64,000 bases of DNA from Lytechinus pictus (taxonomy: Eukaryota), in contig NC_087245.1 of the NCBI RefSeq assembly GCF_037042905.1, positions 18,230,001-18,294,000 of the forward strand. Reading direction: 5' to 3'. Both the position numbers and the translations under genes were made by a program. Shown in pieces: positions 10,305 to 25,115 of the stretch (positions are counted from its first letter, which is position 1; the number at the start of each line of letters is the position of its first letter). The notes below the pieces were generated by a model. That model was not told where the DNA came from. It made no database searches and saw only the letters and a program-made list of their open reading frames with translations.

Positions 10305-11200
10305 TTAAAGGGCAAGTCCTCCCCAACAAAAAGTTGATTTGAATAAAAAGAGAAAAATCCAACAATATATTGCGCACATATCCACCTCGTTAGGTGCTCA
10401 AGACGCTCCTATATTACCCGGCTAAGCTAGGCGTTCATTGCGCACACAGCTTTTTAAGGAATTACTTCCTACCGGTACCCATTTACCTCACCTGGGCTGA
10501 GTGCAGCACATTGTGGATCAGTTCTTGCCGAAGTAAATTACGCCATGGCTGGGATTCGAACCCACGACCCTCTGTTTCAAAGTCCGAAGACTAATCCACT
10601 GGGCCACAACGCTCCACAAGTATAACACTGAAAATTCCATCAAAATTGGATGTAAAATAAGAAAGTTATGACATTTAAAGTTTCGCTTAATTTCATAAAA
10701 CAGTTATATGCACATCCTGGCTGGTATGCAAATGAGGAGACTATGACGTCATCCACTCACTATTTGTTTTGTATTTTATTATATGAAATATTCTAATTTT
10801 CTCCTAATTGTCAAGTGATACGATTAATTCCTCCCTGAACATGTGGAATTAGCATTGTTTAATACTATATGGTTCAGTCAAGTTAGTCCTTATTGTCAAA
10901 TATGTAAAAAATGAAATATTGTATAATTCAAACAATAAAATACAAAAGAAATATAGTGAGTGATGGACATCATCGACTGACTCACCTAGTTGTGCATATC
11001 ACTGTTATGTGAAAAATAAGCGAAGGTTTAAAATGTCATTACTTTCTTATTTAAACCTTAAACGCTTAAAATAAGCGAAGGTTTAAAATGTCATTACTTT
11101 CTTATTTTACATCCGATTTTGATGAAATTTTCAGTTCTATGCTACTTGATTTTTCTATATTTATTCAAGTCAGAATTTTCCTGGGGGACTTGACCTTTAA
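10305..11200. mobile_element. TTAA-flanked Kolobok-like MITE (family A) containing a SINE
   Basis: TTAA-AGGGCAAGTCC...GGACTTGACCT-TTAA; long imperfect inverted arms; related copies at 21133, 31637 and 32242. Confidence 0.75.
10366..10617 (-). mobile_element. tRNA-derived SINE
   Basis: A box TGGCCCAGTGG and B box GGTTCGAATCC on the minus strand; near-identical to 44216-44499. Confidence 0.88.
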
Positions 11201-17970: not shown

Positions 17971-20309
17971 CACTTAGAAATAAAGATGCACAAAGGGTGC
18001 AATCCTATGCGAAAAGATGCAATCTAGAGGGAAAAATGCAATTTTGCACCCTGAAAATTTAAAAGGGTGCAACTTTTCACATTTGGTAGTTTATATTGAA
18101 ATGAAATATCTTCATTACCGCCCTAAAACTAGTGGAAACTAGTTTAAAGTGTAATGAGAACGGTCGAAGCGGTCTTGGAAGCGATCTTCCAAACCAGTTC
18201 GGAAAACCTCCTTGCGATACATTCCTAAAACTAGTTTACTGGAAACTAGTTTAGTGGAAACTAGTTAACGCGTAGTGAGAACGGTCGAAGCGGTCTTGGA
18301 AGCGATCTTCCAAACCAGTTCGGAAAACCACCTCGCGATGTATTGAAGATCGCTTTGCCTCGGTAAATTGGTTTTAGCGCAAGTGAGGACACAACCGTTC
18401 TTCGTGAAGCGATCTTCGCACATTTTGAGCGCGCTACTCCACACGACAGGTGTAGAATTCCTACGCTGCGGTTTCGAATTTCGCGCGAAACGTGTCACCC
18501 CACTGATAGCGTTTCCATAGCAACAAGAGCGCTTTATGTGAAGTGATTTTGAAAACCACTTTCGTGTTGCTAAGAGGCTGTTCTCACTACGTTCCTAAAA
18601 CTAGTTTACTGGGAACCGGTTTAGAAAGCCAGTTTGGAAGATCGCTTTGATCACACGAAAGTGGTTTTCAAAATCACTTCACATAAAGCGCTCTTGTTGC
18701 TATGGAAACGCTCTCAGTGGGGTGACACGTTTCGCGCGAAATTCGAAACCGCAGCATAGGCATTCTACACCTGTCGTGTGGAGTAGCGCGCTCAAAATGT
18801 GCGAAGATCGCTTCCCGAAGAACGGTTGTGTCCTCACTTACGCTAAAACCAGTTTAACGAGGCAAAGCGATCTTGAAAACTGGAGGCCGTTCTCATTACG
18901 CTTTCTAAAACTAGTTTACTGAAAACCGATTCAGGAAACCACTTTGGAAGATCGCTTTGCTAACGTTCCCACTTGATCACACGAAAGTGGTTTTCAAAAT
19001 CACTTCACGTAAAGCGCTCTTGTTGCTATGGAAACGCTCTCAGTGGGGTGACACGTTTCGAGCGAAATTCGAAACCGCAGCATAGGCATTCTCCACCTGT
19101 CGTGTGGAGTAGCGCGCTCAAAATGTGCGAAGATCGCTTCCCGAAGAACGGTTGTGTCCTCACTTACGCTAAAACCAGTTTTACGAGGCAAAGCGATCTT
19201 GAAAATTTCATCGCGAGGTGGTTTTCCAAACTGGTTTGGAAGATCGCTTCCAAGACCGCTTTGACCGTTCTCACTATGCGTTAAACTAGTTTCCACTAAA
19301 CTAGTTTCCAGTAAACTAGTTTTAGGAACGTAGTGAGAACAGCCTCCTACATCGCGAGGTGGTTTTCCAAACTGGTTTGGAAGATCGCTTCCAAGACCGC
19401 TTTGACCGTTCTCACTACGCGTTAAACTAGTTTCCACTAAACTAGTTTCCAGTAACGCTAGCAAAGCGATTTTCCAAACTGGTTTCCTGAACCGGTTTCC
19501 AGTAAGTAGTTTCGCTTTGCCTCCAAATAGTGTATGGAGCACGCGCTCAAAATGTGTGAAGATCGCTTCCCGAAGAACGGTTGTGTCCTCACTTACGCTA
19601 AAACCAGTTTAACGAGGCAAAGCGATCTTCAAAATTGCGAGGTGGTTTTCTGAACCGGCTTGGAAGATCGCTTCCAAGACCGCTTCAACCGTTCTCATTA
19701 CGCTTTCTAAAACTAGTTTACTGGATACCGGTTCAGGAAACCAGTTTGGAAGATCGCTTTGCTAGGTTCCCATTTGATCACACGAAAGTGGTTTACAAAC
19801 TCACTTCCCGTAAAGCGATCTTGTTGCTATAGGAACGCTCTCAGTGGGATGACACGTTTCGCGCGAAATTCGAAACAGCAGCGCTCAAAATGTGCGAAGA
19901 TCGCTTCCCGAAGAATGGTTGTGTCCTCACGCTAAAACCAGTTTAACGAGGCAAAGCGATCTTGATTCTACATCGCGAGGTGGTTTTCTGAACTGATTTG
20001 AAAGATAGCTTCGACCGTTCTCACTACACGTTAAACTAGTTTCCACTAAACTTGTTTCCTGGTAAAAGCTCAGTCGGGAGAGCTTGCATGGGACTCGTAA
20101 CAGGCATGTCTCAGGTTCGATTCCCGGCAGGTCCGCTTCCACGTTAATCTACTGGTTGCATTCATAATAATAATTTTATATTTCACTTTTTAAATTGTGC
20201 AAAATTACACCTTGGTGAAAAGAAGGAACATTGCATACTTAAAGGTGCCCCCAGTGCCGCATGTTTTTGCACCCTCAAAGGTGTAATGTTGCATCCTTAT
20301 TTCTATGTG
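17971..20309. mobile_element. CACTA/EnSpm-like non-autonomous element hosting a MITE array
   Basis: 20-bp TIR CACTTAGAAATAAAGATGCA / TGCATCCTTATTTCTATGTG (2 mismatches); subterminal GGGTGCA/TGCACCC repeats. Confidence 0.6.
18122..20064. repeat. Mosaic tandem/inverted array of a ~460-bp Harbinger-like MITE
   Basis: Five copies of core AAGATCGCTTCCCGAAGAACGGTTGTGTCCTC (one inverted); perfect 39-bp inverted repeat 18574-18612 / 19308-19346; near full-length unit about 18883-19346. Confidence 0.85.
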
Positions 20310-21070: not shown

Positions 21071-21369
21071 TACAGTAAAATTTATCTCGGAGGCTGGGTA
21101 TTGCAGTACTACCATCATTCCCATGTCACAGTTTAAGGACAAGTCCACAAAAAGTTGATTTAAATAAAAAGAGAAAAATCCAACAAGCATATCACTGAAA
21201 ATTGTATCAAAATCGGATGTAAAATAAGAAAGTTATGACAACTTAAAGTTTCGCTTAATTTCACAAAACAGTTATAAATTATGCACATCCTGGCTGGTAT
21301 GCAAATGAGGAGACTATGACGTCATCCACTCACTATTTCTTTTGTATTTTATTATACAAAATATGAAAT

Positions 21370-21646
21370 CGCTGATGTGGTTTACGGTACACCATGTGAA
21401 GTGTTATAGAAACGGTGGATAGAAGAAGAGAAGAAATGGATAGGCGAGAAAGTGGAGATTTGAGAGTAGAGTATTCTTTCTTGAAAGTAGTCCTGAAAAG
21501 GACTGTAAACCAGGAAAGATTGATGAGTTGAGAACAGCTTGAGTAGTAGAGCTAGTGAGGAGATGCTGGCTTGAGTCGGCGAGTAGAGATGATGAGTAGT
21601 AGAGAGACTCGACGTTTCGGGCAGGTTGACTGTCCGTCTTCAGGAG
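21370..21646 (-). mobile_element. Short Penelope-like/retrozyme-like insertion in a MITE
   Basis: Interrupts a MITE that is uninterrupted at this site in the 10305-11200 copy; TGAAAT repeated at both junctions (21364-21369, 21647-21652); carries the hammerhead and an AGTCCTGAAAAGGACT hairpin. Confidence 0.75.
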
Positions 21647-21647
21647 T
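21607..21647 (-). ncRNA. Minimal type I hammerhead ribozyme (Penelope-type)
   Basis: Minus strand reads ACTC-CTGAAGA-C-GGACAG-TCAAC-CTGCCC-GAAAC-GTC-GAGT: CUGANGA and GAAA core, stem I ACTC/GAGT, stem II 5 of 6 bp, GUC cleavage triplet, stem III reduced to palindromic ACGT. Confidence 0.8.
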
Positions 21648-22140
21648 GAAATATTATAATTTTCTCCTCATTGTCAAGTGATACAACGATTAATTCCTCC
21701 CTGAACATGTGGAATTAGCATTGTTTAATATCATATGGTTCAGTCAAGTTGGTCCTTATTGTCAAATCTATAAAAAATGAAACATTGTATAATTCAAACA
21801 ATAAAAAACAAGAGAAATAGTGAGTGATGGACATCATCGACTGACTCACCAAGTTGTGCATATCACTGTTTTGTGAAAAATAAGCGAAACTTAAAAATGT
21901 CATAACTTTCTTATTTTACTTCCGATTTTGATGAAATTTTCAGCACCATGCTAGTTTGATTTTTCTCTATTTATTCAAGTCAGCATTTTCCTGGGGTGGA
22001 CTTGACCTGTAATACTGAAAACAACTTTTCAATGAAACGAATAGCTTAATCTCTATACTGTATATTGATGTCACAGAATAATTATCCATACAAAAACGTA
22101 ACTGATAGAAAATTATATCTTTTTTTCTCATTTCAATTAG

Positions 22141-24614
22141 GTACTTCGAACACTGCCCAGGTTGTATTCTGCAACAATACACATTTCTGCCGCTCAAGAA
22201 ACCCTCCCTGTGTTGATGCCCCCGTTAACGAACACTTGGCTTGCTACTGCGACACACTATGTCTCATCTTCGACGATTGCTGTAACGACTATGAGGAGAC
22301 GTGTCTTCTCGAATATGGAACAACTGCTACAACGGCCACAGACGAACCTTCCCTTAGTATAGATGTTGAAGATAGTTTGGGATTGCCTCTCGACAGGTTT
22401 GAATGCAACACAATTTCTTACGCTCCCAAACGTTCTAATACAGGTTTTTGGGTAGTATCAAAATGTCTGTCTGGTAAAGAGGAGAGTTTGAAGTCCCAAT
22501 GCGAAGATACCCTTCAGCTCCCTCCATCGAAAATGAGCGACGAAGATTTTAAAGCTAAATACGTACCCGTTACTTCTAACAAGACGAATGTGGCCTACAA
22601 AAATCAGTTTTGTGCTCAGTGCAACGATGATTATGGTGATGTGTACTGGTATCTTAAGATTGTTGACAACATTAATGCTAGTAAGGACTTAGGTAATTAT
22701 GCCCTAGAGAGAATGTTTTATCTGTATGTCATGTCGTACAGGAGTTTAACATGGTACCCTCCAAGCAATGTCTACACGAAGCTCATCAGAACATGTATCA
22801 ATCTTGAGGTTACTGACAACGCTGATTGTGGAGATTCATTCACAAAGCAAGAAGGAGATGACTGCAATAGTGTCACTGCTTATGTTCGAATAGATAATGC
22901 ACGACCCGATCAAGAACATTTCCAAAAGTCATTTTGCCAGGGCTGTGCAACCAATAAAGCCTACGATGTCTTGTGCACCCAGGACATTCCTACTGCTTTG
23001 TATGTCATAAATCAGAAAGAGACTGCATTAAAGGAACTACATCTCGTGCCAATATCAGTCATTATTGATTTTACGGGCTCCTCTAAAATCATCGAAATGG
23101 AGGAGAGACAGGAGGAGATTGTAATTAAGTGTCCATCTGGACATGTGTATGACCCTAATGCAAATGTGTGTATACAGCTATCCTGCTCAGAAGGATTCGT
23201 CATGGCCATTGATACCTGTGTTCCAGAGATGGGTCCTCTCAACCAGTACTGTCCTGATCAGGTTCAAGAGTGGTCTTGGGAATTTTACCCTGATTCCCGA
23301 AAATCATGCGAAGGCAAGTTCTCTTTATTACTGGGATGTCTCCAGGAGAAAGGTATCTCTGTAGATGTGATAAAAATCTTAGCAACCTATAGCAAATCAT
23401 ATTTATATTGCCACTACAATTTTCTGGCCAACGTGTCTACGAATGAAAGAGAGTCTAATTGGACAACGCTAGATGACTATATGGTCCAAAGCATTGCGAC
23501 TCCCAAATCCCACTTTTATGATCAATGTGTCATTCTTGATGCAGAATTATATAAATCATGCAAGAGCGCTCTTAAAGACCGTTGCACTATTCCGCTGCGT
23601 ACATTTCCCCTAGGTGCTACTCAGCTCAGTCCAACCGGAGTGAAAAATTACTATGTAAGTGAACTTGAAAAGTGGTATTCTGAGTACATGGCTGTTGAAC
23701 GAGTCACTTACAATGCAAACTACACCAAGGTGACATCTCTATTTGTTTGTACCGAGAATATGCTCCATTGTCCGTTTGTAACACTTAATCAATCACTGTT
23801 CTCTGAAATTCGCAATGGAACCAGAGAAATTGAATACAAACCAACCGGTAGAATTTTCTCCCCAGGAGAATTTTTACGAATTGATAGCGGATACATCCGT
23901 GTTTGCAATTTCTTCGGTAACGTAAGAGTCGAGAACAAAACTTCTGTGACTACCTATATATCATTCTCTCTAAACCAATCAATTGTCAGCACCGTGGGTT
24001 GCTCACTGTCGCTAGTTGCGTTATTTATGACTTTCTTAACGTATGCGCGCTTTCGAGCTTTGCGCCGATGCGTATGCAACAAGTTGATCATGTGTCTCTG
24101 CGTTGCTCTTTTCACTGGGCAATCATTGCTCCTCTTGGGTGGACTGGCTAAATTCAACGTCACTCTCTGCACCGCAGTTTCCTCGTTGACGCACTACACT
24201 TGGCTTGTGGCTTTTGCATTGACTTTCAGCCTGGCATACGACCTCAACCGCACATTCGGCTCTAAGACGATCAGCCGAACAAGCGAGAATGGATCAAAGA
24301 TTCTTCTTATGTACCTCTCCAATTCATTCGGAACCCCACTTCTTGTCGTCATTCCTTGTCTGATCATCCAAATTCAGAAAAGAGAGACTGTTATTTATGG
24401 CCGTGATGGTATCTGTTGGCTTTCTGGATATGTTCCACTGATGCTATCATTTGGTGTTCCTGTGGCAATCACCCTGTGTCTCAACATGGTTCTCTTCGCC
24501 CACACAGTGTTCTCCATCTTCAAGGCCAAGCGTCTGTCAAGAAAGCTACTCCTCCACCATCTGCGTAAGCCAACCTACACTGAAAATATGAAAGAGCTGC
24601 TTATCTACTTTAAG
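22141..24614 (+). CDS. Gene 1 exon 2 (2474 nt): somatomedin-B-like domain, Cys-rich ectodomain, TM1-TM5
   Basis: Within the 863-aa ORF; polypyrimidine acceptor ttttttctcatttcaattag; CYCDTLCLIFDDCCNDYEETC (SMB-like); PVTSNKTNVAYKNQFCAQCN; TM3 HYTWLVAFALTFSLAYDL; donor AAG|GTAATT, phase 0. Confidence 0.92.
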
Positions 24615-25115
24615 GTAATTATCCAATTGCTGTATTTGAAAACGTTATTATGCTAAATTTAATTCTAGTATATGCAGTCAAACAGTACACAGTACTTTTC
24701 GAATAGACTATATAATGTACACATTTCACTCGGAGTGCTTTAATATTTATGTTTGATATAATACCGAGGAATTCGATATGTACATGAAAAAGAATGAAGA
24801 TATACGAAAATATGAAATGAAGACTTTGCAGTGTTGTTTCTTCCATGAAGGGAAGTAGAAACATCGACACGCAACGATGTGTTGATATTAAACTCAGCCT
24901 GAAATCGATCGCTCCGAACCATGATGCAAATTTTACCAAATACAACTTAATTAGAATTTTGGATGATCTACCATTCGCTACATTCTAATGCTATATTTAG
25001 GACCTACACTAATAAACCGACTCTAAATTGGCCGATTGTATATCGTTTAAAATAACGTAATAGAATCGGTTGGTCTGAAGTCGGTTTGCCTGCGTGTCTG
25101 TGCAATCAACAAAGC

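Follow-up and report, generated by a model that had tools for sequence, protein, structure and literature searches.

A 277-bp insert in the 64,000-nucleotide stretch of Lytechinus pictus DNA analysed here (the window) is very probably a solo pseudo-LTR whose parent is a young, autonomous retrotransposon of the Penelope/Poseidon type, and between its minimal hammerhead ribozyme and its 3' end it carries a stem-loop and a downstream box of the histone type. Hammerhead-bearing Penelope ends have been known since 2014. The element type, the ribozyme, the tail and the solo repeats are already known, and the hammerhead-bearing pseudo-LTR that a sequence-only reading of the window had flagged is in itself ordinary. 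The histone-type stem-loop with the host box in a Penelope repeat is the new element of the finding, and it is absent from that earlier account. The features are given below in window coordinates; positions marked q run along the minus strand from window 21652 to 21370, and the RNA data comprise one raw RNA run and three contig sets.

21133-22012 (no strand assigned): host repeat with terminal inverted repeats (MITE-like), the target of the pseudo-LTR; ends approximate
21364-21369 (plus): TGAAAT, copy 1 of a 6-bp duplication, from flank comparison
21647-21652 (plus): TGAAAT, copy 2 of the 6-bp duplication, from flank comparison
21370-21646 (minus): probable solo pseudo-LTR of a retrotransposon of the Penelope/Poseidon type, equal to its 5' UTR in the untailed form, from 98-100% identical full-length copies and ORF continuity
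21645-21649 (minus): initiator-like TCACT, putative transcript start at or near 21647, from copy starts and from 78 reads whose loose ends fall on the same base
21607-21647 (minus): minimal type I hammerhead with a 4-bp stem I, a 6-position stem II and the palindrome ACGU for stem III
21511-21519 (minus): pyrimidine stretch predicted to pair with 8 of the 9 bases of the CAAGAAAGA box
21489-21504 (minus): histone-type 6-bp stem-loop with a UUUC loop and a basal pair A-U, not G-C, from motif comparison
21475-21483 (minus): CAAGAAAGA box, 5 nt after the stem (10 nt in host histone genes)
21370-21396 (minus): 3' block that the sister family also has, its end being the upstream (untailed) site at which reverse transcription starts, from family comparison
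22140-24656 (plus): long open frame with Somatomedin B and 7tm_2 (GPCR) domains in Pfam and an acceptor-like 5' edge

No upstream exon of the receptor frame at 22140-24656 was identified in the window, so that the insert, earlier placed in a GPCR intron, may lie either in an intron or in DNA upstream of the gene. Many paralogues of this receptor, each a single open frame of 780-920 aa, occur in the genome (G000:C1, C6, C12 and others). Scattered frames on the minus strand at 39372-60640 resemble, by eye, the exons of a second, adhesion-type GPCR, whose last coding exon ends far from the insert, and about 2 kb at 18100-20060 consist of rearranged direct and inverted repeats of higher G+C content.

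The host of the insert belongs to a MITE-like inverted-repeat family with more than 2000 candidates in the genome, and flank comparison bore out the description of a 277-bp insert standing between two TGAAAT and missing from the sister copy in the window. The junctions were taken from BLAST; a MAFFT alignment of the filled and empty repeats was discarded as misaligned because the sister copy carries an insertion of its own. By eye that insertion is SINE-like, with a tRNA-like box, and the sister copy also has a 55-bp tandem duplication (the two features together at window 10370-10620 and 11010-11110). On the minus strand, the ATT in the first TGAAAT is also the 3' continuation of the parent element, and the TCA in the second is also the parent's 5' end, the initiator-like TCACT. 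We infer that the overlap at 21364-21369 is a priming microhomology, and that at 21647-21652 would then be a joining microhomology. Since both halves of the duplication match the parent, an insert of 277 bp with a 6-bp duplication and one of 283 bp with none are indistinguishable by sequence. Beyond the insert, the filled site is 7 bp longer than the sister copy; the duplicated 7-bp unit occurs at the same place in other copies of the host repeat (window 32073-31962 and L078) and was seen in 1 of 12 fetched copies. At window 21340-21363, an 8-bp inverted repeat is completed by the extra 7 bp, its other half lying 6 nt upstream; a template-switch change is therefore possible.

A first search of the genome with the insert gave 1173 candidates, and the full-length matches that were scored are 98-100% identical to it. 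Its last 20 bases have 564 exact matches in the genome (control 0), against only 12 candidates for an N-terminal stretch of the ORF. In L075, L076 and L031 the pseudo-LTR runs without a break into an ORF with RT and GIY-YIG domains, and in five further loci (L002, L014, L016, L005 and L009) such a frame lies upstream of the repeat on the same strand. L076 holds an intact RT/GIY-YIG frame of 894 aa with its ATG 15 nt after the end of the repeat, L031 an open frame of 750 aa, and L075 a repeat-ORF-repeat arrangement with a unit of 3158 bp. Because the repeat is continuous with the ORF, whose ATG follows at 15 nt, the insert corresponds to the element's 5' UTR, which forms the pseudo-LTR; the label 'non-coding' given to it earlier holds for the 277 bp themselves. 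[quoted passage not shown] The repeat is 96-99% identical to the repeats of ORF-bearing copies. Folding of the whole insert gave an uninformative z = -1.71. The copy in the window is most likely inert.

The element protein matched Pfam RVT_1 at 45.1 bits, above the cut-off; GIY-YIG scored 22.3 bits in L031, just under the cut-off of 22.6, and was not reported for L076. The motif GVY..PCDCGKVYIG is present, and by eye two cysteines lie between GIY and YIG (the CCHH motif), with no CX2-5CxxC linker finger as defined in PMC8557442. The closest named proteins in a homologue listing belong to sea urchins, sea stars and a crinoid, and identity to an unnamed 836-aa Anolis protein is 39% over 828 columns. 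No relatives were found in viral contigs or prokaryote genomes, and no informative match among solved structures. The copy and ORF data thus uphold the suggestion of a mobile sequence with many dispersed copies, of the Penelope pseudo-LTR kind and with an RT/GIY-YIG partner. They do not uphold that of a separate small non-autonomous family, as the insert is the terminal repeat of an autonomous element, joined to 3' UTR upstream and to the ORF downstream. Elsewhere in the genome, G000:C10:11884867-11903402 holds an array of a 55%-identity sister family in head-to-tail units of about 2.8 kb, first on one strand and then on the opposite one, with several open frames of about 858 aa, and is a candidate source locus. 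L078 is a near-full-length element broken by a 1.8-kb insertion that includes the same MITE-like inverted-repeat family.

The hammerhead lies on the minus strand where it had been reported, with the palindrome ACGU as its only stem III and the same predicted cut. Its parts are the 5' strand of stem I, ACUC (21647-21644), CUGAAGA (21643-21637), one bulged C, stem II (21635-21619), GAAACGUC (21618-21611) and GAGU (21610-21607). After stem II the order is GAAAC, GUC and the predicted cut at 21611/21610 (q42/43). The core had been called complete, but stem II contains an A.C mismatch and has 5 of 6 pairs. The perfect A-U form of stem II occurs in 3 of 56 de-duplicated cores, all of which are intact because they were selected by pattern, so that the count is no evidence of conservation. 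A minimal-hammerhead descriptor gave one match in the window, this motif, versus none in 100 first-order Markov simulations of the window. The proposed Rfam check did not recover it: there were no matches at gathering in the window and no hammerhead family among five weak matches, the snoRNA and lncRNA matches being discarded as weak.

Compensatory changes had been predicted for other copies with a conserved core, and these are present: four families in the genome keep the hammerhead fold with different letters, which argues for selection on structure. Stem I varies among families as ACUC/GAGU, UCUC/GAGA and UCAC/GUGA, the 55%-identity sister family has a different and perfectly paired stem II, and families at 38% identity (L097-L101) have U3-A8 cores; in one of these the palindrome is AGCU and a direct repeat follows downstream. 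In all, covariation was seen across the four families of the genome and three metagenome loci. The dimeric hammerhead was not the minimum in a two-copy cofold, and among the molecule ends listed from one RNA run none lies at the predicted cut. In L055, a 10-nt deletion starts exactly at the cut site.

The motif resembles the minimal hammerheads of metazoan Penelope-like elements (PMC4209133) in having no helix III, a palindromic 15-16, a bulge between 9 and 10.1, the CUGANGA/GAAA core, G10.1-C11.1 and a 4-bp helix I, and likewise in occurring mostly as single motifs from truncated elements, with U3-A8 variants in sister families. It differs from the forms described there in its helix II, which in most young copies has an A.C mismatch among its 6 positions. 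Minimal hammerheads are described as weak on their own (PMC4209133, PMC11167929), and an action on the host by a lone antisense or intergenic copy with a mismatched stem II is unlikely.

The ends of copies bear on how these repeats were generated. In a sample of 30 copies, 18 start at q4-12, a 9-nt zone at stem I, three run upstream, and nine start at q29-62; one copy starts within 2 nt of the hammerhead cut. These copies were chosen on q63-153: of 519 candidates 40 were scored, and the 30 copies come from the 41 exact matches that these gave. Both arms of six pairs are included as well, and the sample is therefore not random. The 5' end of the insert had been placed almost exactly at the ribozyme, which is right for the 5' edge of the hammerhead but 36 nt short of the cut site, so that self-cleavage did not make that end. 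The edge would fit a transcript start rather than a ribozyme cut. Sister families have TCAYT at the matching position, and by eye a TATA-like box stands 31-34 nt upstream of it in two of them. Loose read ends in the RNA run at q6, q282 and q320 fall at the same three boundaries as the copy ends, and no pile-up of molecule ends is listed for that run. Its depth is several hundred over the repeat versus at most 10 just upstream, with both strands alike, which fits repeat copies inside host transcripts and is uninformative on the element's own RNA.

At the other side, 87 de-duplicated ends extend past q283 by 0-9 nt in 46 cases and by 30-40 nt, forming the tail, in 36; one of the remainder extends by 47 nt and four run into the ORF. 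There are thus two fixed 3' ends about 37 nt apart, bracketing the ATG, and the 30-40-nt tail is absent from the window copy. Head-to-head pairs obey a rule: all 29, of which 28 are independent, consist of one tailed and one untailed arm (p = 4e-9 versus a coin toss), and four further pairs agree. Of the 32 minus/plus pairs found, L076, L072 and L074 had been dropped because one of their ends is an internal repeat-ORF junction. The accompanying duplications measure 12 bp in 16 pairs, 13-17 bp in 12 and 8 bp in one. Among single-arm copies, three of 15 have an adjacent duplication of at least 6 bp; that of the window copy is 6 bp, not 12. In L044 the second arm is the tail alone. Direct and inverted pseudo-LTRs and 5' truncation are all present in this family.

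Two other origins of the solo copy were weighed against these data. The repeat could belong to an independent non-autonomous, retrozyme-like family propagated by dimeric-hammerhead excision, circularisation and reinsertion, as the lack of an ORF in most copies might indicate; retrozymes are reported to derive from pseudo-LTRs (bioRxiv 10.64898/2026.07.22.740005), and the repeat is like non-LTR retrozymes (PMC7229834 and the same preprint) in being short, non-coding, equipped with a type I hammerhead and related to pseudo-LTRs. In the one RNA run, 11 reads also contain a short go-back joint by which a stretch of the hammerhead region is doubled, but this joint is not at the cut site, and no cut-site joint is among those listed. 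The ends of the copies match the parent's start and priming sites and not the cut, the repeats of ORF-bearing copies are nearly identical (96-99%), and the parent ORF is attached elsewhere. Tandem copies of the 277 bp, which had been expected, were sought: abutting head-to-tail units occur in 0 of 30 loci and a spaced direct copy in one, so that the retrozyme or circular RNA reading is unsupported here, and we regard it as most improbable. It is also very unlikely that the copy was left when the two direct repeats of a full-length insertion recombined, the way solo LTRs form. Direct repeat pairs do exist (L075), and recombination or deletion has been suggested for some solo pLTRs (PMC3846280), but both junctions of the window copy combine a 3-nt microhomology to the parent with an adjacent duplication, and head-to-head pairs sharing the 5' edge cannot arise by direct-repeat recombination.

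For the solo pseudo-LTR as a direct product of the autonomous element, the following course of integration is proposed. The transcript would start at the initiator-like TCACT. Both strands of AT-rich DNA would be cut by the element protein with an offset of about 12 nt, and each of the two DNA ends would prime reverse transcription at its own site within the 5' UTR, the cDNAs extending to the RNA 5' end. Two cDNAs would give a head-to-head pair with one arm tailed, and a single cDNA joined by microhomology would give a solo copy. In the window copy, the untailed site would have been used with the ATT microhomology and the joint made through TCA. The hammerhead of the RNA template would be uncut. 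An RNA that ended in the downstream repeat, whether cut by the hammerhead or processed in the histone manner, could be a template for pseudo-LTR copies only, since both of these events would lie upstream of the priming sites; such RNAs would, speculatively, explain the excess of pseudo-LTR over ORF copies.

The pairing of one tailed with one untailed arm, mostly with 12-bp duplications, suggests two-strand priming. The protein of the Anolis element prefers ATT and both cleaves and extends the two strands, two internal initiation sites define the tail, and uncut RNA is the main substrate (PMC11167929). A tail on one of two inverted pLTRs, a TCACT initiator and solo pLTRs have been described (PMC3846280), the one-arm tail in qualitative terms (PMC3846280, PMC8557442), and head-to-head pairs were ascribed to a differing mechanism, self-priming on an antisense template (PMC3846280). 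The one-tailed, one-untailed rule together with the 12-bp duplication leads to the prediction that each integration uses both of the in vitro start sites reported in PMC11167929, one per strand.

In its general plan the element agrees with Poseidon of Anolis carolinensis (PMC11167929) and Pen2a of Adineta vaga (PMC3846280): a single ORF with RT and, at the C terminus, GIY-YIG, direct and inverted pseudo-LTRs, a hammerhead in the repeat, ATT at junctions, a 30-40 nt tail on one arm covering the ORF start, and a TCACT initiator-like motif. It differs from these in three respects. The hammerhead stands at the extreme 5' end, about 255 nt before the ATG, whereas the ORF of the Anolis element starts at stem II; the duplications are mostly 12 bp, compared with 8-10 in A. 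vaga; and the 5' UTR contains the histone-type stem-loop and box.

The hairpin at 21489-21504 has a stem closed by U-A under a UUUH-type loop, as histone hairpins do, and it is followed by CAAGAAAGA, which we take to be the sea urchin histone downstream element, the site of U7. Among 10 host histone genes fetched, nine have the stem-loop; the CAAGAAAGA box stands at 10 nt in six and at 11 nt in one, and a one-base variant of it stands at 10 nt in two. The 5' flank of the window hairpin is TTTAC, and the A-rich flank of the host histone genes is absent. Rfam Histone3 (RF00032) gave 15.9 bits for the window stem-loop and 16.9 bits for the sister family against a gathering cut-off of 34. The sister family, at about 55% protein identity, is closer to the host arrangement, with a G-C based stem-loop and CAAGAAAGA at exactly 10 nt, again with no A-rich flank; three bases of the spacer between hairpin and box vary among its subfamilies. 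Its hairpin and box pattern has 1457 matches in the genome, histone arrays included, and none in reversed control, and its 16-nt hairpin is identical to the Drosophila H3 hairpin printed in the methods of PMC5435866.

Three exact blocks common to the 5' UTRs of the two families are longer than any other, one of 14 nt at the hairpin, one of 13 nt at the box and one of 12 nt at the hammerhead core, and hairpin plus box arose by chance in none of 200000 simulated inserts. In both families the hairpin lies within a larger predicted stem, and intact sister copies mostly have 3-5 box bases predicted to be paired in cis. Neither AATAAA nor ATTAAA occurs in the 537 nt of 3' UTR plus repeat. By eye, the hairpin is not visible in three 38%-identity families (L096, L097-L100 and L101), and in three sister copies (L135, L140 and L151) it has been lost by short deletions with the box kept. 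Metagenomes scanned for a hammerhead accompanied by the hairpin yielded 11 loci, from three data sets; this shows occurrence and not frequency because the pattern required the hairpin. One such repeat contains a 20-nt hairpin-bearing stretch identical to that of the window family and likewise placed between ribozyme and tail; CAAGAAAGA is absent from the 11 loci, and their flanks gave no ORF match. By eye, the metagenome repeats (L123-L133) appear to end at two places separated by about 30-35 nt, much as Penelope ends do in their tailed and untailed forms.

Traces of processing were sought in several ways. Of 20 sister copies, from 28 without the exact pattern on two contigs, none starts at the predicted histone-type cut, a blank that a degraded downstream product would also give; arm starts form an apparent cluster at query 150-200, near the hairpin, in a biased sample. 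The one RNA run has no pile-up of ends at the stem-loop. A U7 snRNA gene was not found, one search giving a single match below the cut-off and a pattern of U7 motifs two unconvincing ones. Separately, non-histone open frames whose ends bear a full 3' signal of the histone type, with an A-rich flank, a G-C hairpin, ACCA and, at 10 nt, the box, were noticed at L105:1-510 (+), L106 and L107:1-495 (+), with genome positions in G000 on C3 near 5966101 and 5970752 and on C2 near 2938836 and 45897015; two frames of this type form an inverted duplicate 4.6 kb apart, and the two that were scanned have no Pfam match. A link between Penelope elements and a histone 3' signal was not found in literature searches, subscription papers, Repbase notes and some supplements being outside their scope. 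The word 'histone' occurs 0 times in the main texts of PMC11167929, PMC4209133, PMC8557442, PMC7229834 and bioRxiv 10.64898/2026.07.22.740005, and three supplements of PMC11167929 make no mention of it.

As to what the signal does, it is possible, with somewhat less than an even chance, that stem-loop and CAAGAAAGA recruit the host SLBP and U7 snRNP in this lineage. The outcome would be a histone-type, non-polyadenylated mRNA 3' end in the downstream repeat, or attenuation in the upstream one, and expression of the element would be tied to eggs, early embryos or S phase; such a role is compatible with the solo pseudo-LTR explanation. The likeness to histone pre-mRNA 3' signals (RF00032 with the downstream element; PMC5435866, PMC1924863, PMC5054213) extends to the 6-bp stem, the UUUC loop and the host box, and in the sister family to the 10-nt spacing, the rule in most host histone genes. 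The identity of the sister hairpin with the Drosophila one, the rank of hairpin and box beside the hammerhead core as the longest exact blocks, the empty simulations and the lack of both polyadenylation hexamers also favour recruitment. Unlike the signals described in those sources, however, this one sits in the 5' UTR and terminal repeat of a retrotransposon, where cutting would destroy the mRNA, and the window family has an A-U base, a 5-nt spacing, no A-rich 5' flank and a box of which 8 of 9 bases are predicted to be paired in cis. With the low Rfam scores, the hairpin-less 38%-identity families, the box-less metagenome loci, the missing U7 snRNA and the blanks among RNA and copy ends also counting against function, the motif is not classed as a working histone 3' end.

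About evenly balanced, in our judgement, is the possibility that the element acquired or imitated a histone 3' end in the distant past and that this is now co-opted as a structural site for the element protein, or is vestigial; SLBP may then bind, but U7 would not cut. [quoted passage not shown] Co-option nevertheless leaves unexplained the exact host box and the 10-nt spacing of the sister family, which persist despite a varying spacer, and the metagenome search, having required the hairpin, gives it no frequency to draw on.

We therefore put forward only tentatively, as an idea that is on balance doubtful, that this Penelope/Poseidon lineage has hijacked the histone mRNA pathway. SLBP on the stem-loop and U7 snRNP on the host-matched box would create a poly(A)-less mRNA end with histone-like timing, and together with the hammerhead this would decide between translation and full-length copying. 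Histone mRNAs have been described as the sole messages cut by U7 snRNP (PMC5054213). If the proposal is true, a retrotransposon with the host stem-loop and box would be an exception to histone-only U7 cutting, and it would offer an answer to how a Penelope RNA that here has no poly(A) signal comes to its end; the sister family, with its canonical spacing, would provide a direct substrate for testing.
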